Of a stretch of 64,000 nucleotides of DNA, positions 4,799 to 53,565 are shown in pieces. Below the pieces are notes generated by a model. It was not told the origin of the DNA, did no database searches, and was given only the letters and a program-made list of their open reading frames with translations. This stretch comes from a phage, in NCBI GenBank assembly GCA_025812035.1, contig GCA_025812035.1_4719.1. One strand, written 5' to 3'. Made by a program: the position numbers and the translations under genes. Position 1 is the stretch's first letter; each line of letters begins with the position of its first letter.

Positions 4799-6025
4799 CT
4801 ACTTCGTTTTTGCCGCCAACGGCTGCGATACTGTAATCTCTACCCGATTCTCATCGGTACGTTTAACGGTGATAAGGCTGCGTTCATCGCCGAATGGTTC
4901 TGCTACCTTGGAAGCCTCTTTAAGATTTTCAAGAATCTCGCCAGAGGGTTCAAACACCGCGAAACCGGAGCTAGTGTCAGTTCTTATTAAACCTACGCGC
5001 GTACCATTTACGGTAATGATGTCGTCCGTCTTGAACCCGCAGCAGGAGGGTAGACAGAACTGGCCGTTAACGCAATTAGCTAGGTATGCCTCACCGCCGA
5101 ACATTTCTATTAACGTTACCGGTTTAAATGTTTTCTCTGGGAAAGCGCTATTAAGGGTATCGTTTCCATTCACGAACCAGATCGTTACTTTATCTTCAGA
5201 ATACTCTAGTCTGTACGGCTGGGTTGCGGACGCTTGCGCTTTATGCTGATTAAATAACTTTGATTTCGTCGCAATCACAACACGACCTTCAGCATCAAAG
5301 TACAGAACTTCATATCCAACACATCCGATAAACACGCGACGGTTATTAAGTTCCGGAATTCTGACTAATAACGCATCACGGTTATAAGTAGGAATGATGC
5401 CCCGTAGGATGATCGATTCGTTGTTCAATGTTGCATTGCTCGCGACGATGCTTCGCATTGCCGCTGGCGTCAGTATTTTATCTGCTGTAGGTTTAAGTTG
5501 CTCCGCTGTTACAGTCATGGATCTATCTTCGTTTTCAACTGGCCAGTTGAAAACGATTGTTTTATTAAGACAAACAATTGGGGTAATTTCGCCGATACTC
5601 CGTATCTTGACTGAGGGGAAATTGCACACATACGGAACAAAAACATCAATATCGCTGGTCGCTTCTTCAAGCATGCTAGCATACGCCATTGCTTCGGGAC
5701 GATCGGTGAGATGAATAACAGCATAGACGATATCGTCTTTTAACCACGCATGTTTCACTCGTCCTATAACACGATTGGTGTCTACAATAACTCTCTGAGC
5801 TTTCATCTCCCATTTTACTGCATCAGTACCACCCGCAACCACATTCGGTTTATCCGCGTTTACACGATGAAGGAAACTATTGATTATTTCCTCATTGATC
5901 TGGATATCCTTTCTCGCAAAATTCAACAGCGGAATAACGAACTCATTGTTACCGCACTTCACTGCTCCGCGAATGATAGGAGTACACTTCTTGTTCTCAT
6001 CTGATCCCCAGATAACTTTAGTCAT
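4799..6025 (-). CDS. hypothetical protein (~408 aa)
   Basis: ORF track start is GTG at 6052. The ATG at 6025 has SD GAAGGA. Stop is TAG. No motif recognised. Confidence 0.6.
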   Translation of the reverse strand: MTKVIWGSDENKKCTPIIRGAVKCGNNEFVIPLLNFARKDIQINEEIINSFLHRVNADKPNVVAGGTDAVKWEMKAQRVIVDTNRVIGRVKHAWLKDDIVYAVIHLTDRPEAMAYASMLEEATSDIDVFVPYVCNFPSVKIRSIGEITPIVCLNKTIVFNWPVENEDRSMTVTAEQLKPTADKILTPAAMRSIVASNATLNNESIILRGIIPTYNRDALLVRIPELNNRRVFIGCVGYEVLYFDAEGRVVIATKSKLFNQHKAQASATQPYRLEYSEDKVTIWFVNGNDTLNSAFPEKTFKPVTLIEMFGGEAYLANCVNGQFCLPSCCGFKTDDIITVNGTRVGLIRTDTSSGFAVFEPSGEILENLKEASKVAEPFGDERSLITVKRTDENRVEITVSQPLAAKTK

Positions 6026-6058: not shown

Positions 6059-6700
6059 CTAACGGCGTTTTGTACCAACCTTCCCATTTCGATGGTCATC
6101 AAGAATACGCCATTCTTCGAACAGGAGTTCAGCAGCGAAATAACCTACGGCAATGCTGTCTATCGCATGCTCATCAAGATTCGCTAACACAACACCATTC
6201 TTGGGTGTGATGTTCATGAGGTTCAATACTTTCTGGCGAACATCGTCCTTACCAACGCGGGACGTCATGATCCCAACGGCACGTTTTGCGCTTCGGTTAT
6301 CAACCCCTAAGAAAGACACCGTAGGGTCAAAATCAATAACCGTTGTCTGAATCGCTGAAAACAGTTCACTGAGCGCCATACCGCTTTGCTTGAAACGACC
6401 GATGAACGGTGTCTCACAAGCAACCGCTTGTGGCTGGTACTCTTGCAATAACGTTGTCAGCGAACGACGATGTTCTTGGATACGTGCGGCACGATTACCA
6501 TACCCAAGTGCAATATCGCCATCAGGATCATACCGACGGGAGGCGTGCCATGTCCCCGCATACAGCAGTTCAATATCTTCGACACGCACATCCAAACGCA
6601 GTAACGACGCACCGAGCGTATCGGTGCCGGGGTCGATTGCCAGAATATCGTAAGCGTATTCTGGTGGAATCATGGCGTTACAACAGCCTCCACCGACCAT
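6059..6700 (-). CDS. RuvC-like Holliday junction resolvase
   Basis: LAIDPGTDTLG (first catalytic Asp), ACE (Glu) and DEHAIDSIAVG (C-terminal Asp pair) match the RuvC layout. Stop is TAG. Confidence 0.75.
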   Translation of the reverse strand: MVGGGCCNAMIPPEYAYDILAIDPGTDTLGASLLRLDVRVEDIELLYAGTWHASRRYDPDGDIALGYGNRAARIQEHRRSLTTLLQEYQPQAVACETPFIGRFKQSGMALSELFSAIQTTVIDFDPTVSFLGVDNRSAKRAVGIMTSRVGKDDVRQKVLNLMNITPKNGVVLANLDEHAIDSIAVGYFAAELLFEEWRILDDHRNGKVGTKRR

Positions 6701-13970: not shown

Positions 13971-14246
13971 TTACGCAGCTTTACAGCTTGCGTAAACCAC
14001 AATCGTTCCGTTGTTGATTGCCTCAACAATTTCCTGGGTCAGTTTGGTCGCTAATTTATTATCCGTCCCCGGTACGTAATAACCTTCTCCTGTTTCAGTG
14101 ATTAAGCGATAACGTACTAATCCCACCGTACGCTCAACGCGTACCACCTTTTCAAGTTTGTGTTTGATGATCTTCGTCAGACTGATTGTATCTGACGTGT
14201 AGATCGCTTTATAAACTTTGTTCTTTGCTGTCGGTTTCATCAACAT
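13971..14246 (-). CDS. hypothetical protein (91 aa)
   Basis: ORF in the array. Confidence 0.5.
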   Translation of the reverse strand: MLMKPTAKNKVYKAIYTSDTISLTKIIKHKLEKVVRVERTVGLVRYRLITETGEGYYVPGTDNKLATKLTQEIVEAINNGTIVVYASCKAA

Positions 14247-15102
14247 GGTTTCTGTTTTCCTCGGTTTGTTGTGGTGCTAGGTCAGAGATATCCCATCGGA
14301 CATAACCGATCTCACTGATTCGCTCTGCTACCTCTTCGGTTTGCGAATTACGACTAATCATCGGTAACCATTCTCCGTGTCCGGTGATCTTGACTTCCGT
14401 AAGCTGTAAACTCATGTTCCAACGAACATCGTAAACCAACGCATAGCCAAGAGGATGAACAAGTCCATCTTGGGCGTACATCGTCAAAAGACCTCTTACA
14501 TCTTCGCTACGAAGTGATTTCATGGATGGGCGTACGCGTTGAAGTCTATTTGTGATATCGTATCCCAACTCGATGTCTTTCCAACCTGTCATGGCGTAAG
14601 GAATAACGTTACGACGACGGAGCTGATAGTTGTGAGTGGTTTCTTCGGCGGTAAGGTGTACCCAACCGAGATCGCTGTATGCGACAAACCGCACCGTATC
14701 ACCATCGATTGCAGTATGCCCATCTAACGCTGCTGCAACACCGTGGCCTGCGTAATACGGCGGAATAACGTTAATCATTTTAATACGACTTTCTTGACCG
14801 GTATGGTCAGGATCGATATGTGCGTAGAAACAATTATGGCTTACAGGGCGACCTTCCGCCATACGCCCACGGAAGACAGGGTCCTGCATTCCGAGCGGAT
14901 GGTAATACGCGAGCTGTTGCTCTTCACCTTCCCCGATTACCAACAAACGATCTTCACGACTTGGCGTACTAGGATCTTTCACTGTGATGTAACTAACAAC
15001 CGGTTTCAGGTTGTTTAAAATGTCCTCTGTAAGTTTCTCTAAATCCGATGCTGCGTAAATACGGTTAACAACGGTGTTTACAAGGTGTTTTGATAAGCTC
15101 AT
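14209..15102 (-). CDS. paralog family H protein A (unknown function)
   Basis: Shares YHPLGMQD, a second HPLGY motif and C-terminal GYVRWDISDL with 15184-16074. Confidence 0.65.
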   Translation of the reverse strand: MSLSKHLVNTVVNRIYAASDLEKLTEDILNNLKPVVSYITVKDPSTPSREDRLLVIGEGEEQQLAYYHPLGMQDPVFRGRMAEGRPVSHNCFYAHIDPDHTGQESRIKMINVIPPYYAGHGVAAALDGHTAIDGDTVRFVAYSDLGWVHLTAEETTHNYQLRRRNVIPYAMTGWKDIELGYDITNRLQRVRPSMKSLRSEDVRGLLTMYAQDGLVHPLGYALVYDVRWNMSLQLTEVKITGHGEWLPMISRNSQTEEVAERISEIGYVRWDISDLAPQQTEENRNHVDETDSKEQSL

Positions 15103-15183
15103 TTTAGATCTCTCTTTGTTAATGGTAAATAAATAACGGCATAAAAAGGGGACAACGCTGTCCCCGTGTTAGGTATTATCTGC

Positions 15184-16074
15184 TTACGGCTTCAAATCCG
15201 AAATATCCCAGCGTACGTAACCTGTGTGTTCGATATCCTCGACCAATTGCTCGGTTTGATTTTCAACACCGACAACGGGAACCCAATTCAACTGTTGGCT
15301 ACGTATACCGATGTTAACCTCGACACGCTGCAGATCATCATTCCAACGAACCCCGGCCGGTTTCACAAAACCCAGCGGATGGATAAAACTAAGATCGTCG
15401 CTGAAATCACGAAGAACGCGCAATGTATCGATGGATGAAGGGTTATCATAGCGAACAGGACGTACGCTTTGCAGTTTATCGTATACCGCTCGAGCTGCGC
15501 GCTCGTCACGCCAGGTCGTCATGTATACCGGTTTTATACCACGTTTTAGAAGATGATCGATCTGGATCGCGATGTTATCGTGAACATACATGCAGCCCTG
15601 TTCGGTTTCGGTGTTGTAACCACCATCTTCTAACCGGTTCGGATACGTCAGATGGTCTACCGTCACAGCAACTCCTTCAGCGAACGTGTTCAACGGAAGA
15701 AAACGTTGCAGACTCGTTATCGGATAATCGGGCGACATCCCAGGACGGATATGCGCCATCGTCCCCCAACTGTCAGGGAAGCCATGTCGGTATATGTATT
15801 GCCGGAATACCTCATCCTGCATCCCTAACGGATACCATCGTGCAAGCCGCTGTTGCTCACCATCCTGAATAACAAAAAGCATTTCTTTGCGATTCGGCCA
15901 TCGATGATGTTCCACGGTCAAGCCATCAACAACCGGTCTTAAATTGTTCTTGATGTGTTCTGGAAGTTTATCCACCTCTTCACGACGATAAAAACGATCG
16001 ATGACGATGATGTCAACCTTCCCATGATTGAACCAGTTCATGTTAACTCCCTCTGTGGTGCGAAAACAAAACAT
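15184..16074 (-). CDS. paralog family H protein B (unknown function)
   Basis: See A. An alternative ATG at 16041 has SD GAGGGA. Confidence 0.65.
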   Translation of the reverse strand: MFCFRTTEGVNMNWFNHGKVDIIVIDRFYRREEVDKLPEHIKNNLRPVVDGLTVEHHRWPNRKEMLFVIQDGEQQRLARWYPLGMQDEVFRQYIYRHGFPDSWGTMAHIRPGMSPDYPITSLQRFLPLNTFAEGVAVTVDHLTYPNRLEDGGYNTETEQGCMYVHDNIAIQIDHLLKRGIKPVYMTTWRDERAARAVYDKLQSVRPVRYDNPSSIDTLRVLRDFSDDLSFIHPLGFVKPAGVRWNDDLQRVEVNIGIRSQQLNWVPVVGVENQTEQLVEDIEHTGYVRWDISDLKP

Positions 16075-16333
16075 CTAATTGCTCCCGTTGTTCTTTTAAG
16101 TATGCGGGAAGCTGGTCTTCCCGTACCGTTCCGATTTCTAACATGATGTACCAGCGTTGTTCGGAAGCCTGCCATTGAAAACTGCTCTGTAAACGTAGGA
16201 TGCTAGGATCATGTACCTTGCTTGCGCTGTAACGGTTGAACCAGCCCAGGTAAGCGGCTTTCCCCTCCTCATCGGCAACGTAACGCTGCACGCTGTTCTT
16301 CCCTTTGTTTTCGTATCCTGTTGCATGTATCAT
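16043..16333 (-). CDS. hypothetical small protein (~96 aa)
   Basis: ATG at 16333 overlaps the upstream stop as ATGA. ORF track gives 16043-16390. Confidence 0.5.
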   Translation of the reverse strand: MIHATGYENKGKNSVQRYVADEEGKAAYLGWFNRYSASKVHDPSILRLQSSFQWQASEQRWYIMLEIGTVREDQLPAYLKEQREQLDVLFSHHRGS

Positions 16334-17106
16334 GCGAACGTTTCTCCTGTAACGTGTTGTGGGCGTTGCAGCATGGTAGCATCCCAGCATACCAGCTTGC
16401 TTTTCTCAAGCATCTTCCGCGCCGTATCAACGCTAACGCCAGGATGCATGACAGGTAGCCAACGTTCGTTAAGCACCTTGGCTTCCAGGCGTTGCTTGCG
16501 CTTATTGTATTGTACCTCGCTAACCCATGCGTAACCGAAAGGATGGATAACCCGTGGGTAGTAACGTTTAAGCATCATCAGTCTTTGCTGATAAAGCTTA
16601 TCGGAACCCTCACCAACGAATAAGGCAACCCGTTCCAACCGCTTGGTGTAATACGTTCCGGTGGTATGATTGATCCAACCAGGAAGCGTTCGTACATCAT
16701 TTTCGAGTGTTCCTGATACGTTATGCACTTCACCGCTATACACCGTCCCAACAACCTGATTCGTTGCGTCCACCATCGACCGTGGCAAAGCATCCGCGGT
16801 AGGATACAACCATGCATCCCCAAGCTGCTCTCCCGACGCAAGTACCCGTAATCCGCTTGCGCTCACCCGCAACGGATGCTGGCTCTTATGCGCACGCAAC
16901 TGCACCACAGATAAGTCTACCGGATGGGCGATGCAACAGCCACGCTGACGGAACAGTCCAACCTCACCATCCACCCCTTCGATCATGCTTCCTTCCGAAC
17001 CGTTCCACCAACGTTTAACCTTCACGCATTCGGCTTGCACCGTTTCAGGCAACGTTAAATAATCGTGTTCAATAAACACCACATCAAAAATCAATGCTTC
17101 TTTCAT
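16330..17106 (-). CDS. paralog family H protein C (unknown function)
   Basis: Single HPFGY motif and related C-terminus. SD AGAGGA upstream. Confidence 0.65.
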   Translation of the reverse strand: MKEALIFDVVFIEHDYLTLPETVQAECVKVKRWWNGSEGSMIEGVDGEVGLFRQRGCCIAHPVDLSVVQLRAHKSQHPLRVSASGLRVLASGEQLGDAWLYPTADALPRSMVDATNQVVGTVYSGEVHNVSGTLENDVRTLPGWINHTTGTYYTKRLERVALFVGEGSDKLYQQRLMMLKRYYPRVIHPFGYAWVSEVQYNKRKQRLEAKVLNERWLPVMHPGVSVDTARKMLEKSKLVCWDATMLQRPQHVTGETFA

Positions 17107-17905: not shown

Positions 17906-18799
17906 TTAATCGACAGTGTTATAACCGAATACAGCTTTACCGTAAGTGTGAGTACCGTCGGTTAACGACACCACTAGTACGTGGTTGTATGCGTCGTTAA
18001 CACCCTTGTCAGTAGACCCTGTGGTAGCTCCGTTATAGACAAAGGTAGCTGTTTGCAGGTTGGCTTTCAGCTCGTTAGTGATATCATCGCTGACACCCGT
18101 CTGCTCTTTGATCAGCGTAGTCAGGTTACCTGCCAGGCTTTCACCGATCTTGGTTTCGTTACTGGTGATCGCCTGTAAACCTGTAGTGTAGGAGCTGAAG
18201 TCTAACGGATAGGTTAACAGACGCGCTGAGGTCTTGGTACCATCACCTTCATCAACGTAGGTTAAGTTACCCAGGTTGGTAACCTTGATGATGTTAGACA
18301 GATCCAGCGTTGTGTTATAAACTTTAACTTGAACAGAGCCGTACCACGCCAATGAATCTTCTTTGGCTTCCAGGGTGATCGTCTGGATACCCGATTGCTC
18401 AAAGGTAACCGGCGTAGCTAACGTTTCGGCTTTGATGTCTTTTGCTTTATCCAGGAACTTATCACCAGATGGCGTGATCATACCGTAGCGTTTCGCTACA
18501 AGGTCAACCACATCACCGATGGTGGTGTTCGCATCAACGTTAACACGCACCGCGATCTTCTGGAACCACTTAGCCAGATCCAGACGATGGTAGGTAACAT
18601 CGCGGTTATTGAAGTAAGGAGTACCTTCACCAGGACTGAGTGTTAAAGTTGCTTCTGGAGCAGAAGCGCTTTTAGATTTAAGGACGTATTTAAGGTCGGT
18701 ATATTTAAAGCTGGCACCAGTGTCGGCGTTAAGCTGGTTGATCTCATCAACGATAAGCTGCCATGGTGTTTTTAAAGTAAGCGATACTTGAGCTGTCAT
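17906..18799 (-). CDS. probable abundant virion protein (unknown function)
   Basis: Optimised codon usage and a monocistronic layout. ORF track start at 18832 is TTG; the ATG at 18799 has SD GAGGAAG. Confidence 0.6.
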   Translation of the reverse strand: MTAQVSLTLKTPWQLIVDEINQLNADTGASFKYTDLKYVLKSKSASAPEATLTLSPGEGTPYFNNRDVTYHRLDLAKWFQKIAVRVNVDANTTIGDVVDLVAKRYGMITPSGDKFLDKAKDIKAETLATPVTFEQSGIQTITLEAKEDSLAWYGSVQVKVYNTTLDLSNIIKVTNLGNLTYVDEGDGTKTSARLLTYPLDFSSYTTGLQAITSNETKIGESLAGNLTTLIKEQTGVSDDITNELKANLQTATFVYNGATTGSTDKGVNDAYNHVLVVSLTDGTHTYGKAVFGYNTVD

Positions 18800-18854
18800 T
18801 TTCTTCCTCGATAGTTTGTACATCACTCTCAAAAGATGTAAGTGTTTACAGAAA

Positions 18855-18873
18855 TTAATATATTTTATATTAA
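18855..18873. promoter_or_regulatory. AT-rich perfect palindrome TTAATATA-TTT-TATATTAA in divergent promoter region
   Basis: 8-bp inverted repeat with 3-nt spacer between two divergent, codon-optimised genes. A TATAAAATA element is adjacent. Confidence 0.4.
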
Positions 18874-18942
18874 ATGTGAATATTATGGAGAACGACTCCG
18901 AATCTCCTTTTCGACCATCAAAAAATCAGAGGACACACAATC

Positions 18943-19485
18943 ATGGCCTTAGACTTTAACAAAGCAGCGAAATCCCTTCTGCTCGATCTCATCAACACCA
19001 AAGCAACCCGCGCACTGTCCGAAGAAGAACTGCAGTTCGGTACTCCGACAGCATCTTCCGAACATGAAAAGAACACCGTTATCCAGCTGAATGCTGCGCC
19101 TGAAGCAGCTAACCTGCAGGGTACCTAGCAGTTCTTCTACAATCGTCTGGCTCTGTCCGAAGTTTTCGCTGACGTAACCGGTGATGTTACTTTCGAACTG
19201 CCGCACGGTACTGACAGCATTCAGGCTTCTGAGCTGGTAAGCAAGCTGGTCACCAAATTCGGTCTGGCTTCCCTGACCGGTGAAATCAATGAAGAAACCT
19301 TCCAGCTGTCTGCGGGTACTGTTGGTCAGGTAACCCTGACTGCGATCGAGGGTGGTATGGTATATACCGGCACTCTGCAGGTTGCACTGACTTATGCAGC
19401 AGCACCAAAAGACGAACTGGCAACCGTTCTGGCGAATAACGTAGCTGAAGGTTTCGAGAAACCGACCGTTAGCGTTGTTGGCTAA
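18943..19485 (+). CDS. highly codon-optimised 181-codon gene interrupted by in-frame amber codon (TAG at 19126-19128)
   Basis: SD GAGGA, ATG at 18943, frame open to the double stop TAATAA at 19483-19488 except for one TAG. No ATG in the 119 codons after the TAG. Confidence 0.6.
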
Positions 19486-19682
19486 TAAGCGCATAGAGCA
19501 ATAGTATGGGTTTTGTACAGCTCGGCTATTGCTCTTCTACAATTTGGTTGTAACAATCTGCGTGGTTGCACGCTTATCTTTTTCATTGAGCGCTTCGTAT
19601 GAAGCGTAGTGTTGAAAGGGTTGTGGATCTCCTCAAGCGGCCAGGGACCCAGACCAACCTAAATAAACACAAACAAATCTTA

Positions 19683-19781: not shown

Positions 19782-20417
19782 TTATTCAACACTGAAACCA
19801 TTCAAGCAGATAGCTTCATAACGCTTACGTTCACGGCGTTTGCGTGCTTGCCATCCGTAAATGAATTTCTCGTCTTTCTCACGACGCTCAGCCAATTCGA
19901 TGTAATAGGTGCTCTGCATGTCCAGCATCGCATCGATGAGATAATCCTTACCGGTTGCGCCACGCTTAGCGATGTAGGCATCAAGAGCCGCCAGTGTTTT
20001 GGGACCCATTGCGCCATCAGCGTCGATATTTTTCCAGTAAGTTTGGCGGTTGTTCATGACGTTCAGATAACGCTGAAGGTTCTTAACCGGTACGGTTTTG
20101 CCTGCGTTGATGCCCAGGTCAAAGAGACGATCAGCCAAGAACACGGAACGTTTCATGACCTCATCAAGCTTCATCTTATCCCAGAAGTGGGTCTTGTAGA
20201 TGAAGAACGCCATTTCCGTGGTAAGGTTACGCATATTACCGTCCCACCCGAATTTCGTTTTCAGCGTGGTTTTGTATTGGTTGGCAAGCGCTTGCGTAAT
20301 GCCGTGGTTAGTGATTCCGCCCGAGTCATCGGGATCGTCGACGTAACCTGCTTCGATGCTAGTTTTATCATGAATGATAAATTCGCAAGTAAAATCTTTT
20401 TCAGTAATCTTGGCCAT
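19782..20417 (-). CDS. endolysin, GH108-type lysozyme with PG_binding_3 domain
   Basis: EAGYVDDPDDSGGITNHGITQ matches the GH108 N-terminal signature. DADGAMGPKTLAAL matches the peptidoglycan-binding motif. Confidence 0.8.
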   Translation of the reverse strand: MAKITEKDFTCEFIIHDKTSIEAGYVDDPDDSGGITNHGITQALANQYKTTLKTKFGWDGNMRNLTTEMAFFIYKTHFWDKMKLDEVMKRSVFLADRLFDLGINAGKTVPVKNLQRYLNVMNNRQTYWKNIDADGAMGPKTLAALDAYIAKRGATGKDYLIDAMLDMQSTYYIELAERREKDEKFIYGWQARKRRERKRYEAICLNGFSVE

Positions 20418-20542: not shown

Positions 20543-22591
20543 TCAAATACCTTTGGTTCCCTTCACGTGATGTGCAATTTCTTCAACCATTGCACGCAAC
20601 GCACGAAGCTGCTGGTCGTGTTCGTACCAACCACCCAACAGAACCCCGCTGTACACCATGGTGTCAAGACTTAACAGTCCTTTATCTGATACGTTGATCA
20701 TTTCCGGGAACTGTTCTTGAACACGCTGTGCGATGACACCGATCTTCTCTACATCAGGATCGTAGTTGTGACGGAAACGGGCAAGCCCGCTGCGCGCCAT
20801 TTCACGTAAACGTTCGCTAAGAGATTCCGGATGGTCTTTCAGGTAACGGATGTCATGTTTACTACGCTCATCTGAACGGATGTATGCGTTAGGAACATCG
20901 ATGTTACTGTTGAAGTACAGCGCGCTACCACCACCTGCAGAGTTACCCCAATAGAAGCGTGTGATCTCGCCACCACCATTTTCCGTGATGATAACATGTT
21001 TACCTAAACGCGTGCCACCATTGCCGTCAACGAAGACCAGTTTGTTTCCACTGTAAGAACCCCAGAACAAACGGGTATCGATGATGTGCGTTGCAGCGAG
21101 ACGAGCGTTACGCGGTGTAGAATACACAGTGTTAACATCTTGCTGTGCTTGCGCATCGGAAGCGATACCGTAGTTCTGTACATTACCTAACCCCACCTGC
21201 GCTTTCGTAACAGCGTGTGGGTTATCTCGACGGTTAGCGTGAGCGTTAACCAGATCGCCCGCCAGTTTTTGAATAGCCCAGTTGGTAGACTGTGGTGTCA
21301 TGTAGCGGTTCGTTGCAGAACCACCTTGCGCCTCAGCTTGGTTAGCGGTTGGGTAGTTCTCAACGCTTCCTAACCCCACTTGTGCTTTAGACACTTGGTG
21401 CGGGTTGTTCTTGTCAGCGATGTGTGCATTAAGCGGAACTAACGCAAAGGTCTCGATGGACGCTTTGGTTGTGTTCGGTGCCATTAATCGGTTAGCTGCA
21501 ACACCGGCACGCGCTTCATCCTCAGACGCCATTGGGTAGTCTTGCACGTTACCCAACCCAACCTGCGCTTTGGTTACTCTGTGTGGGTTGTTGTAATCGG
21601 CTTTATGTGCGTTAAGCGGAATCAATGCGAACTGTTCGATCGCTGCAACGGTACGTAGCGGCGTCATGAAACGGTTGTTCGCGGTTCCGCCCTTCGCCTC
21701 GCTATCCGAAGCGGTTGGGAAGTTATCAACGTTCCCAAGGTTAACCTGTGCTTTGGTGACGCTATGCGGGTTATCTTTACGGTTAGCGTGAGCATCGACT
21801 AGGTCACCAGCCAGTTTAGCGATTGCCCATCCAACCGTTTGTGCGGTCATGTATCGGTCGGGTGCGGTACCGGCTTCTGACTCCGCCTTGTTTGCGGTAG
21901 GATAGTTCTGTACATTACCTAACCCAACTTGGGCTTTGGTGGTTTCGTGCGGGTTATCGGTACGGTTAGCATGCGCGTAATGCAGATCGGTAAGATTTTT
22001 ATCCGCTGCTTGCATGTCTTTGCGTAACTGATCGATTGCTGCCCAGAGACGGTTATCGGACGCAGCGTCACCGATAAGTATCGCGGCTTTCAGCGAATAG
22101 ATCGCTAAGCAAAGATGTTCGGTACCGTAGATAGCACTAACGTGGTGGATGTGTGGTTCAGGCGGATAAAGTTCCGGTTTGTTCTTGATATCATCCCAGT
22201 TGATCGGTCGATCGTCAAGTTTGAGTTCTTCGATAGCCTGATATAACGCGTCAATAAGACTTACGTAAACACCACCGATGATACGATAGTCGTTAACTAA
22301 CGTACCCTCGATGTCGTCGTTGATGATGGCGATGGCTGCACAGATTTCTTTACCAGCGTAAAGTGTAGCGTCCTGATACAAGAAGATGGGTTTATAATCC
22401 ACGCCTCGCACCAGTGTCTTACCGGTAAGCTTTTCGGTGATAACCAGACTTTCGGTGAAGAACGGTCCGCCATCGAGGGCGTAACATTTATTCTCGGTTC
22501 GTGGAACGGTATGCTCTTCACCAACGATGTGGTTGCTATCGAGTGTACCGGTCCAGTCCTCGGGGTACTTCAGGGTAATTGGTGTTGACAT
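20543..22591 (-). CDS. tail fibre protein with C-terminal intramolecular chaperone (peptidase S74-like) domain
   Basis: Five or more repeats of NPHxVTKAQVGLGNVxNY. C-terminal SDERSKHDI and IGVIAQRVQEQFPEMI match the self-cleaving chaperone domain of endosialidase-type fibres. Confidence 0.8.
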   Translation of the reverse strand: MSTPITLKYPEDWTGTLDSNHIVGEEHTVPRTENKCYALDGGPFFTESLVITEKLTGKTLVRGVDYKPIFLYQDATLYAGKEICAAIAIINDDIEGTLVNDYRIIGGVYVSLIDALYQAIEELKLDDRPINWDDIKNKPELYPPEPHIHHVSAIYGTEHLCLAIYSLKAAILIGDAASDNRLWAAIDQLRKDMQAADKNLTDLHYAHANRTDNPHETTKAQVGLGNVQNYPTANKAESEAGTAPDRYMTAQTVGWAIAKLAGDLVDAHANRKDNPHSVTKAQVNLGNVDNFPTASDSEAKGGTANNRFMTPLRTVAAIEQFALIPLNAHKADYNNPHRVTKAQVGLGNVQDYPMASEDEARAGVAANRLMAPNTTKASIETFALVPLNAHIADKNNPHQVSKAQVGLGSVENYPTANQAEAQGGSATNRYMTPQSTNWAIQKLAGDLVNAHANRRDNPHAVTKAQVGLGNVQNYGIASDAQAQQDVNTVYSTPRNARLAATHIIDTRLFWGSYSGNKLVFVDGNGGTRLGKHVIITENGGGEITRFYWGNSAGGGSALYFNSNIDVPNAYIRSDERSKHDIRYLKDHPESLSERLREMARSGLARFRHNYDPDVEKIGVIAQRVQEQFPEMINVSDKGLLSLDTMVYSGVLLGGWYEHDQQLRALRAMVEEIAHHVKGTKGI

Positions 22592-26278: not shown

Positions 26279-28432
26279 TTATAACGTCTCGAAGTCTTTT
26301 GCCTTGATGACCGCGTTGAAGTTGGCAAGGAATTCCTTAAGCAATGCTTGGAAAACATCGCGGAACGCCGCGTTCGTCTTCAAGCTGGTTAAATAGTCGT
26401 TCTTAAGGTAATCGCTTAGCTTACCGATCTTCTGCATCTTCACGCCATCATCGTTCTCTCCGGGTTCTTGGCTATTGATATTAGCCCATTTGATCCCTTC
26501 GAGATCACCATCGGCAAGGAAGTTCGCTGGTGTCTCATCATCGTTCAGGATTTTGATCGTATCGCTGGATTCAATACCACCGTAAGCTTCCAGAAGCTGG
26601 TTGATGGCCAACTTATTGACGTTGATTGAACCATTAACACCATCGATACCGATACCAGTACCTGTGATGGATGTCGCCGAAAGATCGATCGGTCCGGTTA
26701 ACTTACCCCCATTGATAGGAAGCGCACCGACTTGCTCGGCAGTGTGGGTGTGGTTGGCTAACGCAGCAAACGCCGCAATCGACTTGTAGGTCGAGTACGG
26801 TGTCATGTATGTCGTCTGGTTAGTCCTGTCGGCAGCTTGCGTGTCGGTGGCAACAGCAAAGTCCTGCACGTTGCTGAGACCGACCTGCGCTTTCGTTACT
26901 CCATGCGGGTTGCTCTTATCGACAACGTGTGCCGCAAAACCGTCACCCGCTAAAGCGATGATTGCTGCTTTTGTCGCAGCTGGTGTCATATAGCGGTTGG
27001 TCGCCACACCTGTTTCTGCTTCCTCATCAGAAGCAACAGGATAGTTCTGTACACTGCCTAACCCAACCTGTGCTTTGGTTACCCTGTGTGGGTTCTCGGT
27101 ATTTGCGATGTGACTACTGAACCCTTGACCAGCCATTTGCTCGATTGCGTAACGAACAAGTATTGGTGTCATGTACTTGTTGTTAACCTGACCGTCGATA
27201 GCTTCTTGGGTAGTAGCAACCCCAAAGTTCTGCACGCTTCCCAGACCGACTTGGGCTTTTGTCACCCCATGCGGGTTATTGGTGTTGCCAATGTGTTCGG
27301 TTACGGTCGGGGTGATTAACGCTGCGATGGCGGCTGCTGTAGTTGCAGGCGTCATGTATTTGTTGTTAGCGACACCGGCACCGGCTTCTACGTTGGATGC
27401 TACACCGTAGTTCTCAACGCTTCCTAACCCCACCTGAGCCTTGGTGACCCCATGTGGGTTGCTTTTGTTTCCGGTGTGGCTTGTCAGCGAAGCATTAACG
27501 TTATCGATACGCGTACTTAAGCCATCAGTGATTGCTTTGATTGCCGCTCGTACGCCCGCAGGAGTCGTGTACAGGTTAGTGGCTGTACCGGTAATGGTTG
27601 TATTACTGTCGGCTACACCGTAGTTCTCGACGTCCCCGAGTCCCACCTGGGCTTTCGTAACCTTGTGTGGGTTGTTGCGGTTGCTGATGTGCGCTGCGGC
27701 ACTATCGCCACTAAGGTTAGCGATCATCTTACGTGTCATCGCCAACGTCATGTACAGATTTTCACCGACGGTTTCCAGATCGTTCTCGGTCGCCGTTGTG
27801 AAGTTCTGCACATTCCCCAACCCCACCTGAGCCTTGGTTACTCCGTGGGGATTATCACGTCGATTCTCATGCTGCACTAACGCAGTCATTGCTTTATTGA
27901 ACCCTTCTTCAAGCGGTTCTTTCAATGACTCGATTGCAGCTACCACATCGTCCCACGTCATCGTGTCGGTTTCGACATTATGTTGGTGGTTGATTGGTGG
28001 GAATACGGAAGGAACGTCAGCAACCTTTTCCCAGAACGTGACACGAGGATCGTAAAGGTTGTTGGCTAAAACGTTAAGAATCTGTTGTTGATCAAGTGTA
28101 AACTCACCCCCCAGTGAATAGTAGTTCAGTTGCAACTGTCCACTGAATGCGGTGTCCAACAGCATGATGGAACCGTATAATTCCAGGCCGGTCAGCGCAG
28201 CCATGGCACGGAAGGGGTGAGTGCATAAAAAGTCAACGCCTTCTTCCAGATACGCGTTTGTTTCAGGGTTGTAGATCCTTAACCCATTACGAAAATATGG
28301 CGCGTATTTAGGAACGAGAAAGTTAAATCCGGTCCCCGTGGAAGGACGGACAGTGACGAGTTCTTCTGGAACCCATGCGCCATCCAAATTCCCCTGCGGG
28401 TTATACGGAAGGCGTTTAATTTCATCTGTCAT
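26279..28432 (-). CDS. tail fibre protein (repeat-containing)
   Basis: Eight or more NPH(G/K)VTKAQVGLG(S/N)V(E/Q)N(Y/F) repeats, homologous to those in 20543-22591. Confidence 0.75.
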   Translation of the reverse strand: MTDEIKRLPYNPQGNLDGAWVPEELVTVRPSTGTGFNFLVPKYAPYFRNGLRIYNPETNAYLEEGVDFLCTHPFRAMAALTGLELYGSIMLLDTAFSGQLQLNYYSLGGEFTLDQQQILNVLANNLYDPRVTFWEKVADVPSVFPPINHQHNVETDTMTWDDVVAAIESLKEPLEEGFNKAMTALVQHENRRDNPHGVTKAQVGLGNVQNFTTATENDLETVGENLYMTLAMTRKMIANLSGDSAAAHISNRNNPHKVTKAQVGLGDVENYGVADSNTTITGTATNLYTTPAGVRAAIKAITDGLSTRIDNVNASLTSHTGNKSNPHGVTKAQVGLGSVENYGVASNVEAGAGVANNKYMTPATTAAAIAALITPTVTEHIGNTNNPHGVTKAQVGLGSVQNFGVATTQEAIDGQVNNKYMTPILVRYAIEQMAGQGFSSHIANTENPHRVTKAQVGLGSVQNYPVASDEEAETGVATNRYMTPAATKAAIIALAGDGFAAHVVDKSNPHGVTKAQVGLSNVQDFAVATDTQAADRTNQTTYMTPYSTYKSIAAFAALANHTHTAEQVGALPINGGKLTGPIDLSATSITGTGIGIDGVNGSINVNKLAINQLLEAYGGIESSDTIKILNDDETPANFLADGDLEGIKWANINSQEPGENDDGVKMQKIGKLSDYLKNDYLTSLKTNAAFRDVFQALLKEFLANFNAVIKAKDFETL

Positions 28433-50249: not shown

Positions 50250-50576
50250 CTAACTTATCGTCATGAATTCACTCGGTGAGAATTTCCAACCATTCTCATT
50301 GAGAAGTGTGTTGAGTTTCGCTGCAACGATAAGCCATGCATGCATAGCCGTTACGTCGTATTGGCGATTTACCCGACGTTGGTTTTCGATATTGATTTGC
50401 TCCTGTTCAGTGATGTTTGGATAAAGTGCGATAGCGCTGGGCTTACCCAAAGCGCTAGTCATCACCGCGGTACATTCACTGATAATGTTGTTTAAGTGGT
50501 AGTTGTACACCGTTCCACGCATGACACGATGACGGCATTCGATAATAGCGTCGTAAATGATTTCTCGAGTAATCAT
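50250..50576 (-). CDS. hypothetical protein (108 aa)
   Basis: ORF. Confidence 0.5.
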   Translation of the reverse strand: MITREIIYDAIIECRHRVMRGTVYNYHLNNIISECTAVMTSALGKPSAIALYPNITEQEQINIENQRRVNRQYDVTAMHAWLIVAAKLNTLLNENGWKFSPSEFMTIS

Positions 50577-51683: not shown

Positions 51684-52586
51684 TTACTTAGTCTTCGAGT
51701 TACAAGGACTGACCTGTTGTTGTACTCGTTGAATTGTGTCGTAGTACGGGTTAGATTGGTTGAACATGTTGTTGTGTGGATGATAGCCGTATGGCGCATT
51801 TTGCCTTGTTGATGAGAAACCTTGTTGAGAAGGACGATTTGAATTAACCGCGAGTACGTAGTAAACCAAATTTTGACGGTCGAACGTTCCTTCGTTTTTG
51901 AAGGTGTCGGCGTAGGTGCTTATCGCTGGAGCGAGTCTATCACCATCGGCGGTAATAATTGTACCGTCTGGGTAAACTTCACGAACGACGCACCATGTTC
52001 CGATAAGAACGTCTTTGGGTGGCGTATTGCCGTATCCGGTTGTAACGGTAAGGTAAGTATCGAACCCTTCAGAACAACAAGGATGACGATAGATAGGTCC
52101 TGTCATTTCCGTTCTATCGGTATCATCGCATTTCTCTATTGAGAGCGATGATGTGTCGGTTTTGAAATTGTCAAATTCTTTCTTTAAGTCGATTACAGGT
52201 TCTTTCGTATAGTACTTCTTGATTGCTTTGACGTAAAGATCAGGAACGGTTGTCAGCATTCCGTTATACCTGATTCTCAGGTTTTCGAGTAATCCAAAGA
52301 TACTCGCGCATGCTTGTTCGCGAGGTTTTGTAAGATAAGAGATCCCCCCAGGAACGCTGGGATCTTTGAGAAAGAAGATTGCGTTATTGTCGTTGTGTGG
52401 TGCATTGAAGAAAACGATTGATTCGATATATACGGAGCATAGGCTGTCGTTGGCGTCGTCAGATAACACCCAGATGCACTCATCGGTCGTCTTGTTTAAA
52501 AGTTCTGTTTTGTCCACCAAACGTTGTTTCATTGCGAGGAAATGTGCCTGTTGTTCAGCGGATAATTCACGATAAATAGTGGTCAT
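51684..52586 (-). CDS. paralog family Y protein (member 1)
   Basis: VREVYPDGTIIT and CxxxxDxYLT(V/I)T motifs shared with 52672-53451. ATG at 52586 has SD AAGGAG. Confidence 0.55.
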   Translation of the reverse strand: MTTIYRELSAEQQAHFLAMKQRLVDKTELLNKTTDECIWVLSDDANDSLCSVYIESIVFFNAPHNDNNAIFFLKDPSVPGGISYLTKPREQACASIFGLLENLRIRYNGMLTTVPDLYVKAIKKYYTKEPVIDLKKEFDNFKTDTSSLSIEKCDDTDRTEMTGPIYRHPCCSEGFDTYLTVTTGYGNTPPKDVLIGTWCVVREVYPDGTIITADGDRLAPAISTYADTFKNEGTFDRQNLVYYVLAVNSNRPSQQGFSSTRQNAPYGYHPHNNMFNQSNPYYDTIQRVQQQVSPCNSKTK

Positions 52587-52671
52587 ACTCGGCTCCTTGA
52601 TTACGATAAGGATGATTGCGGTTTTGTGATGCTGGTAGGGCCCTAAACAAAGGAGCCCTACCAATATTGGG

Positions 52672-53451
52672 TTACTCAGGATCGGCGTAGAAATGATGGG
52701 GATAGCCGGAGTACGATCCCGCGTTACCGGCTATGGATTTTTTCTGGGAATCGACGACGAGCGCATAGAACTGTCGGGAATTTGTTAGCGTTGAGAAATA
52801 AGAGGAAAGGACTTTTTCATTCAACGCATCGCAAGGTAGACAGGTGCGACCGCAAAACGTCACAATACGACCGTCAGGATAGATCTCACGAATCATTCTC
52901 CATTCGCCGATATCAACCGGCGATGGCGCTGCTACAGCACCCGTTATTGTTAAGTAACGATCGTACGTGGTGTGGCATTCTGGATGAATGTAGATCGGTT
53001 GGGTATCAGTGCTTTCGTTTTCTACCTGATCTTTGCTTACGTATACCTCAAGATAAATCGTTGGTAGTCCGGTTAGAACGCCGGTATCGCGACGTTTTTT
53101 GGTAATCCGGGGACGGATATTATCGAGCACACCTTCCAGTTTTTCTGCGATTTCGTCAGCCGGTAATATATACCCGTATGTTGGTTCTAGATCATCATCG
53201 TGACTGAATAAGATACGACAGTCGTTGTTATTTTCTGGTGCTTCAGGCGGAAAGATGATGGCTTGAACCGTATGACGTTCTGCGATATAAAATCCTTCAG
53301 GTCCCTCAGTTTTGGTAAGTGTAAAGGACCAGGATGAATGATCTTCAAGTGATGTGCCTTCCAGGAAAAAGTTCGTCCGGATTGGTGCGTCCCATTTTGT
53401 GATCATATTGGCGTGACCGATAGCGCCTAACTTTTGATAAATATCTGTCAT
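52672..53451 (-). CDS. paralog family Y protein (member 2)
   Basis: IREIYPDGRIVT. ATG at 53451 has SD GAGGA; ORF track start is 53547. Confidence 0.55.
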   Translation of the reverse strand: MTDIYQKLGAIGHANMITKWDAPIRTNFFLEGTSLEDHSSWSFTLTKTEGPEGFYIAERHTVQAIIFPPEAPENNNDCRILFSHDDDLEPTYGYILPADEIAEKLEGVLDNIRPRITKKRRDTGVLTGLPTIYLEVYVSKDQVENESTDTQPIYIHPECHTTYDRYLTITGAVAAPSPVDIGEWRMIREIYPDGRIVTFCGRTCLPCDALNEKVLSSYFSTLTNSRQFYALVVDSQKKSIAGNAGSYSGYPHHFYADPE

Positions 53452-53507
53452 GATTGTATCCTCGGTTGTTAAGAGAAATTTACAGCGATAACAGTAACCG
53501 TTGTTAT

Positions 53508-53531
53508 CACCTAGGTAATATAGTCGTGAAA
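53508..53531. promoter_or_regulatory. conserved 24-nt motif (copy 4; CACCTAGGTAATATAGTCGTGAAA)
   Basis: Part of the ~90-bp cassette 53508-53597. Confidence 0.45.
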
Positions 53532-53565
53532 TAAACTGGATTAACAAGAATAAGACAGCATAGAA

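Follow-up and report, generated by a model that had tools for sequence, protein, structure and literature searches.

A recent amber codon interrupts the gp23 (DUF7941) orthologue of a Goslar-like jumbo phage and hints that this virion protein may be dispensable

Introduction

Escherichia phage vB_EcoM_Goslar (Goslarvirus) is a nucleus-forming jumbo phage that infects E. coli. According to label-free MS, its gp23 is the most abundant virion protein outside the atomic model, with ~2,140 copies per virion (bioRxiv 10.64898/2026.04.21.720040). The protein is one of ten DUF7941 paralogues in this phage, and the family has been proposed to build a "fibre cloud" that is anchored at the baseplate and serves in host recognition. 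Filaments form from purified gp22, while no baseplate location for gp23 has been observed in the Goslar maps (bioRxiv 10.64898/2026.04.21.720040).

In phiKZ, the 177-aa protein gp143, which adjoins the endolysin gp144, is counted as a DUF7941 member by the same authors (bioRxiv 10.64898/2026.04.21.720040). The gene (orf143) tolerates five transposon insertions and is non-essential by TnSeq (PMC12676376), and its product is a proposed holin regulator that modulates holin timing (PMC12894885). We describe here a Goslar-like genome in which the gp23 orthologue carries a TAG at codon 62, and we compare this locus with its closest relatives, with known cases of stop codon read-through and with the classical amber mutants of T4 and lambda.

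Results and Discussion

The interrupted reading frame is the orthologue of Goslar gp23

The window, that is, the whole 64-kb stretch of DNA analysed, shares ~91-92% nucleotide identity with Goslar and is collinear with it throughout. An earlier note on this DNA, made from the sequence alone, had pointed to a reading frame that starts at a Shine-Dalgarno-preceded ATG, ends at a tandem TAATAA and is open save for one TAG. This layout is borne out from the sequence: the frame runs from ATG 18943 to TAATAA at 19483-19488, and its sole in-frame interruption is the TAG at 19126-19128 (codon 62). The features of the locus are as follows.

17906..18799, - strand: gp22 orthologue, a divergent paralogue of 297 aa with full-length DUF7941, intact (175 bits to PF25613)
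18928..18933, + strand: Shine-Dalgarno-like AGAGGA, read from the sequence, 9 nt 5' of ATG 18943, kept in Goslar and other relatives
18943..19125, + strand: codons 1-61 of the gp23 orthologue (DUF7941); the 61-aa product is called in Logan contig SRR22004794_286
19126..19128, + strand: TAG (amber) at codon 62, followed by C; ancestral CAG (Gln), C-to-T transition at 19126
19129..19482, + strand: remainder of the gp23 orthologue (codons 63-180), undamaged and still in frame, separated from the start codon by the TAG
19348..19359, + strand: internal GAGG, 5 nt and ATG (codon 139), with the potential for a 42-aa C-terminal peptide; lineage-specific
19483..19488, + strand: natural tandem terminator TAATAA, read from the sequence, kept in all relatives
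19495-19504 / 19526-19535, + strand: perfect 10-bp inverted repeat 3' of the gene (consensus match only)
19560-19583, + strand: terminator-like hairpin GCGTG-GTTG-CACGC plus T-tract, 3' of the gene (consensus match only)
19782..20417, - strand: endolysin (GH108 + PG_binding_3), gp24 orthologue and convergent neighbour, the anchor for retrieving related loci

The frame is the orthologue of Goslar gp023 (YP_009820708.1; HOV27_gp023; 180 aa; annotated as "virion structural protein"). Both position and length agree, with 180 codons lying between the gp22 and gp24 orthologues, and the two halves, once joined, align end to end with the Goslar protein at 87% amino acid identity over 180 residues. When the TAG is read as Gln, the repaired protein matches the Pfam family DUF7941 (PF25613) with 74.2 bits and E = 1.6e-20, well above the cut-off of 27, and it also matches phrog_1037 and phrog_2935. 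The end-to-end alignment of both halves and the DUF7941 match together indicate that the interrupted frame is more than a chance ORF. The Goslar gene and the window gene are alike in length, flanks (divergent gp22, convergent endolysin gp24), Shine-Dalgarno sequence, TAATAA terminator and extreme codon optimisation, whereas they differ in codon 62 (CAG in Goslar, TAG in the window) and by 23 further amino acid substitutions. The wider family comprises ~530 distinct member sequences in 35 clusters, almost all of them 171-184 aa long.

Downstream of the TAG there are 118 sense codons, not the 119 counted in the earlier note. The first in-frame ATG, GTG or TTG is the ATG at 19357, the one place where translation could restart in frame; it would yield 42 aa, and the gene calls on the Logan contig include this short ORF. 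Re-initiation at this ATG was considered and set aside as incidental, the site being shared with intact alleles and Goslar having Leu there. If termination at the TAG is efficient, codons 1-61 are the sole translated part of the gene.

Codon usage points to a highly expressed gene on both sides of the stop

Scored against a standard list of codons optimal in E. coli, the gp23 orthologue has an optimal-codon frequency of 0.842. Among the 50 genes of the window only the major capsid protein is higher (0.857), and the remaining genes reach at most 0.65. The strong codon optimisation claimed in the earlier note is thus confirmed, and the high expression that it deduced from codon usage alone proved right, given the copy number of gp23 in the Goslar virion (bioRxiv 10.64898/2026.04.21.720040).

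The optimal-codon frequency is 0.80 proximal to the TAG and 0.86 distal to it. That the codons past the stop are still optimised might be taken as a sign of ongoing translation. This deduction is wrong: the TAG is so recent that the distal part has had no time for decay, no other base in the gene having changed, as described below.

The TAG arose from a CAG codon by a single recent substitution

We compared the locus with seven relatives, namely Goslar, one IMG/VR contig and five contigs retrieved via their identical endolysin. The earlier note had asked whether related phages have CAG or TAG at this codon and had suggested an amber mutation from a Gln codon. Codon 62 is CAG (Gln) in all seven (Goslar, IMG/VR L003, L007, L008, L010, L011 and L012), which supports that suggestion and sets the polarity of the substitution. 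Two of the alleles, in DRR848572 and ERR15003929, match the window gene at 545 of 546 bases, the sole difference being C instead of T at 19126. The genes that flank them are less alike, with mismatches to the window at 27 and 95 other aligned positions. The substitution is therefore the only one that separates these genes, and it is recent.

Across the family, Gln62 is kept in at least 90% of 36 sequences, down to ~45% identity. Against more distant relatives, dN/dS is 0.18-0.33 before codon 62 and 0.20-0.29 after it; such low values on both sides of the codon indicate that the full-length protein has been maintained by selection. Because all seven relatives have CAG, two of them in an otherwise identical gene, the TAG is a single and very recent C-to-T transition on a background of purifying selection. 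A Dcm hot-spot was considered as the cause of this transition and rejected, since the site reads CCCAGC and not CCWGG.

Two assemblies, probably of one sample, carry the T

The earlier note had listed a base-call error among its explanations. A search of the public index for the exact 61-aa product gave one other occurrence, in the Logan assembly of run SRR22004794 (contig _286, 18.66 kb). Over 6,636 bp this contig is 100.000% identical to the window, TAG included, and the window's gp22 variant was likewise found solely in this run. That a second assembly from raw reads calls T argues against an assembly or polishing artefact, and a base-call error is accordingly disfavoured. The window and the Logan contig probably come from one sample, however, so that their agreement is not an independent biological observation. 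Our literature search found no papers naming run SRR22004794 or the assembly accession.

One can still picture a situation in which the majority base at 19126 is C and the T was introduced by a faulty base call or by polishing, or belongs to a sub-population along which the assemblers happened to run. The TAG allele has been seen in one run only, the two contigs likely share reads and so provide no biological replication, and one base separates this allele from those of two other samples. Public assemblies of the gene do hold artefacts, such as the adapter chimera P0051 and a possible homopolymer frameshift in L017. On the other hand, two assembly pipelines agree on the base within 6.6 kb of 100% identical sequence, the change is a substitution rather than a difference in homopolymer length, it lies outside the Dcm motif, and a k-mer assembler yields contigs only along well-supported k-mers. 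With these arguments set side by side, an artefact or a minority variant is unlikely.

Neither programmed read-through nor recoding fits the locus

An in-frame stop ahead of a well-kept distal frame could also be a stop that the phage means to read. The earlier note had proposed programmed read-through with a 61-aa and a 180-aa product; a related idea is that TAG is reassigned to Gln. The 118 distal codons, intact and codon-optimised, would agree with either, as would the C that follows the TAG and the ancestral Gln at this position, Gln being the amino acid inserted in the known TAG-to-Gln recoded phages. However, one would expect conservation of a programmed signal, and TAG is found at codon 62 in none of the seven relatives, including the two with an otherwise identical gene. 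Recency, for its part, fully explains the intact distal codons.

The rest of the window points the same way. When 55 Goslar CDS were mapped onto the window by tblastn and the 50 full-length orthologues evaluated, the gp23 orthologue was the only one with an in-frame stop, so the TAG is unique there. The 50 genes end with TAA (37), TGA (10) or TAG (3), the TAG terminators lying at 4799-4801, 6059-6061 and 50250-50252; the two ordinary TAG stops cited in the earlier note, at 4799 and 6059, are joined by a third. ARAGORN found no tRNA genes in the 64-kb window, and Goslar is reported to be without tRNAs (PMC6563267). No stimulatory RNA structure was found 3' of the TAG, the 100 nt from this codon folding no better than shuffles (z = -0.35), and downstream of it the intact alleles have the very same sequence. 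Recoding machinery is thus absent from the window.

Qbeta A1 and MuLV gag-pol resemble the window gene in that an in-frame stop is followed by an intact downstream extension. Unlike in those systems, the stop is not conserved here, stimulatory context or structure is missing, and the "extension" is the remainder of a single-domain protein. For practical purposes both programmed read-through and a recoded TAG can be excluded, and we give them next to no credence.

Suppression by the host is improbable

As the earlier note had suggested, a real amber may also be suppressed phenotypically by a host amber-suppressor tRNA (supE-type Gln or other), in which case wild-type or near-wild-type gp23 would still be made in useful amounts. 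Since the position originally held Gln, a supE-type tRNA would rebuild the wild-type protein exactly, and expression is so strong (optimal-codon frequency 0.84; ~2,140 copies in the Goslar virion) that even partial suppression could give many copies. The base after the TAG might help as well: C after a stop was reportedly described by Poole, Brown and Tate in 1995 as a weak termination context in E. coli. These arguments have to be set against the lack of a suppressor tRNA in the window, as in the published description of Goslar, and against the rarity of amber suppressors outside laboratory strains. In addition, the lineage differs by ~9% from Goslar, the laboratory model, which makes an engineered amber stock unlikely, and the three window genes that end in TAG would be read through in a suppressor host.

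The classical am mutants of T4 and lambda offer a parallel. As in those mutants, a one-base change turns a sense codon (CAG) into TAG in a virion-protein gene, and an N-terminal fragment is expected without a suppressor. The window allele differs in that it comes from a public sequencing run and not from a laboratory selection, and in that the phage would have no need of a suppressor if the gene is non-essential, as it may be. Taken together, suppression in the host seems distinctly improbable to us, and an unsuppressed nonsense allele remains the reading that we favour.

The stop falls in the central strand of a single predicted domain

To gain insight into the consequences of an unsuppressed stop, we turned to an AF2 model made for an orthologue of equal length and 92% identity (pLDDT 87). 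The model shows a single alpha/beta domain (~residues 1-155) plus a conserved C-terminal tail. Residue 62 sits in the central strand (61-66) of this ~155-residue domain. Residues 1-61 cover just the helix 9-18 and the strands 30-32 and 45-51, and with a stop at codon 62 the remaining part of the sheet is lost, along with the long helix 95-106 and the tail. Because the truncation hits the central beta-strand of a single-domain fold, the 61-aa fragment would almost certainly be non-functional. The tail may be a docking element, as the head-to-tail model of the Goslar preprint implies. Barring suppression of the TAG, virions of this allele would be expected to contain next to no gp23.

A PDB search by sequence gave chance matches only (E = 0.11). 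By fold, Foldseek gave one significant PDB match, 9XQD chain 0 (E = 1.2e-7, probability 1.00, TM 0.72 over ~150 residues). This 150-residue chain belongs to the outer peripheral baseplate of phiKZ, in agreement with the placement of the DUF7941 family in the preprint. This chain, the N-terminal domain of gp127 according to the Goslar preprint, is like gp23 in fold, but the sequence identity is only 15%, and phiKZ gp127 has an extra C-terminal domain that gp23 is without.

Other disrupted alleles are rare

Our survey of the family uncovered other damaged copies of gp23. In SRR28154381 a clean 272-bp deletion removes the start codon and ~90 codons, and with them the N-terminal domain, and in ERR12745733 the gene carries a +1 insertion frameshift in a G-run, which may be a sequencing error. 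A further candidate, the 69-aa sequence P0051, was rejected as a truncated allele, since its tail QIGRAHV is translated Illumina adapter and the sequence an artefact. With the amber included, disrupted alleles make up ~3 of the ~530 distinct sequences. Goslar-like genomes also occur as 235-240 kb contigs in assemblies that bear the labels of E. coli O157 and Salmonella isolates.

One may ask whether loss of gp23 is positively selected, for example during long-term carriage in culture, through altered adsorption or lysis timing, or as an escape from a host factor that recognises gp23, with knockouts recurring as a result. Three different disruptions in different samples (the amber, the deletion and the frameshift) would fit this idea, the contigs inside enteric isolate assemblies suggest carriage in cultures, and phiKZ gp143, also a small endolysin neighbour counted as DUF7941, modulates holin timing (PMC12894885). 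Against it, each disrupted allele was seen once and one of them may be an error, and the gene is under purifying selection (dN/dS 0.2-0.3). The rarity of the disrupted alleles fits transient loss better than adaptive loss. The Avs5 anti-jumbo-phage defence, the sole defence-sensing lead examined, was rejected as a selective agent, its trigger being the unrelated early protein JADA. A selected loss of gp23 therefore appears very doubtful.

In a broader form of this proposal, the amber would be one of several independent natural gp23 knockouts, and some life-styles, for instance carriage in cultures of enteric bacteria, would allow Goslar-like phages to lose the major subunit of the proposed "DUF7941 fibre cloud", or perhaps even favour its loss. 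We hold this to be unlikely. If true, the window and the otherwise identical CAG alleles would form a natural isogenic pair for probing the role of this proposed micron-scale cloud.

A tolerated null allele is the probable explanation

The evidence as a whole leads us to think that the TAG is probably a genuine, very recent nonsense mutation, and the allele a null or strongly hypomorphic one that is either tolerated, gp23 being accessory within a redundant family, or a young and mildly deleterious variant. In the phage population of run SRR22004794, a spontaneous C-to-T change would have turned the CAG of Gln62 into TAG. Release factor 1 of an ordinary host would then terminate at codon 62, leaving a 61-residue fragment without most of the alpha/beta domain and without the conserved C-terminal tail, so that the allele would be null or nearly null. 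Basal read-through of UAG is well under a few percent. By such a leak only, a low level of wild-type protein could be supplied, Gln being one of the residues that near-cognate decoding of UAG places in E. coli proteins (PMC4333366). The phage would survive if gp23 is not a core assembly protein but plays an accessory part within a family of redundant paralogues, of which Goslar has ten; alternatively, the TAG allele could be young and mildly deleterious, with selection yet to remove it. The intact gp22 neighbour is the most obvious candidate for a partial functional back-up. The deletion and frameshift alleles of other public assemblies lend the idea of a dispensable gp23 some indirect support. 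What the comparisons show is the substitution itself, with its polarity, recency and uniqueness, and the lack of recoding machinery; from these considerations we infer that the allele is non-functional, unsuppressed and tolerated.

The transposon data on phiKZ gp143 offer a parallel for this dispensability, by analogy only. Orthology of the two proteins was considered but not adopted, the sequence evidence being below threshold: gp143 scores 18.3 bits against PF25613, under the cut-off of 27, and hhalign of the family alignment (A2) with gp143 gives a probability of 0.85% and E = 0.065. The two are alike in size, endolysin adjacency, virion structural annotation and their DUF7941 listing in the Goslar preprint, but they differ in gene orientation and neighbours, and the proposed role in holin regulation is that of gp143. 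phiKZ uses a different endolysin family, and an endolysin tblastn toward its lysis cassette was uninformative.

Some observations weigh against a tolerated null. Given the abundance of gp23 in the Goslar virion and the purifying selection on its gene, complete loss might well lower fitness. The TAG lineage has turned up in one sequencing run only, and the link in sequence behind the phiKZ gp143 analogy is weak.

Conclusions

In mechanistic terms the TAG is a nonsense mutation of the usual kind, and the locus adds an allele to a gene family that was already known. Gene callers split the locus into "genes" of 61 aa and 42 aa, as seen in the Logan calls, and its proper label is a disrupted gp23 orthologue. 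The affected protein is reported as the main subunit of the newly proposed host-recognition "fibre cloud" (bioRxiv 10.64898/2026.04.21.720040). If the TAG is fixed in the sample, then a population carrying a null allele would be circumstantial evidence that gp23 is not strictly essential. What the mutation mainly does is to hint at the dispensability of gp23.

Disrupted gp23 alleles in public assemblies

Our analysis uncovered two disrupted gp23 alleles in public assemblies besides that of the window, one lying on each of the Logan contigs designated L018 and L017:

SRR28154381_120229 (L018), 985-1356: gp23 allele with a clean 272-bp deletion, by which the start codon and ~90 codons are lost
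ERR12745733_5702 (L017), 849-2004: gp23 allele with a +1 insertion around codon 35, an additional G in CTCCGG(G)GGGC

In L017, the gp22 orthologue next to the disrupted gp23 measures just 156 aa rather than 297 aa, and error-prone reads may be the source of this gp23 allele.

The 69-aa protein P0051 from ENA, which clusters with the 61-aa product of the window, was considered as a second truncated gp23 allele and rejected, its C-terminal QIGRAHV being a translation of the Illumina adapter AGATCGGAAGAGCACACGTC. P0051 is a contig end chimeric with adapter and not a biological allele.

Flanks and opposite strand of the gp23 gene

Over 18011-18758, the gp22 orthologue of the window differs at 17 positions from its two nearest relatives, the related-locus contigs L012 and L008, whereas in the gp23 gene and its leader (18759-19490) the TAG codon is the sole difference from the same two contigs. 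This abrupt shift in divergence suggests a mosaic created by recombination, with its junction between gp22 and gp23.

Three further features were found on the opposite strand of the gp23 gene or in the region separating it from the convergent endolysin gene:

18949-19494, minus strand: antisense ORF of 181 aa, uninterrupted across the entire gp23 gene
19495-19504 / 19526-19535, plus strand: perfect inverted repeat (10-bp arms, 21-nt loop) in the interval between gp23 and the convergent endolysin gene
19560-19583, plus strand: GC-rich hairpin followed by a T-tract, 3' of the inverted repeat

No homology support was found for the 181-aa antisense ORF, whose openness most likely just follows from the extreme codon bias on the sense strand. 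The hairpin with its T-tract likely marks a terminator region between the two genes; in phage Goslar, a terminator is annotated in the equivalent intergenic region, on the minus strand.

Variable and duplicated genes relative to Goslar

Most of the window outside 12-17.5 kb shows >90% amino acid identity to Goslar. In contrast, the gp015-gp021 orthologues, which span the entire 12-17.5 kb stretch, reach only 38-72%, and this stretch is a hypervariable accessory region. Paralogues were found there and elsewhere in the window:

14209-17106, minus strand: three tandem Goslar gp021-like paralogues (297, 296 and 258 aa)
20543-22591, minus strand: gp025 orthologue, a Peptidase_S74-type tail-fibre protein
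26279-28432, minus strand: gp029 orthologue, a related tail-fibre-like protein
51684-53547, minus strand: pair of neighbouring paralogues (ORFs of 326 and 291 aa), flanked by the orthologues of gp046 and gp048

Goslar carries a single copy of the gp021-like protein against the three of the window, the 297- and 296-aa members of which have the C-terminal motif GYVRWDISDL in common. The orthologues of gp025 and gp029 are themselves paralogous (37-47% identity across ~500 aa), and a motif resembling NPHxVTKAQVGLGNVxNYP recurs about five times within them. Motifs common to the 326- and 291-aa ORFs include IY.HP.C and REVYPDG/REIYPDG; except for a 35-residue match to gp047, Goslar has no counterpart of this pair at that place.

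Goslar-like phages in assemblies of enteric isolates

The Goslar-like gp23 proteins P0037-P0042 are encoded on 235-240 kb contigs within NCBI assemblies labelled as isolates of E. coli O157 and Salmonella enterica (Newport, Enteritidis). Evidently, the sequencing of enteric isolate cultures also captures Goslar-like jumbo phages; this co-occurrence may point to a carrier state or pseudolysogeny, and to a host range extending beyond E. coli.
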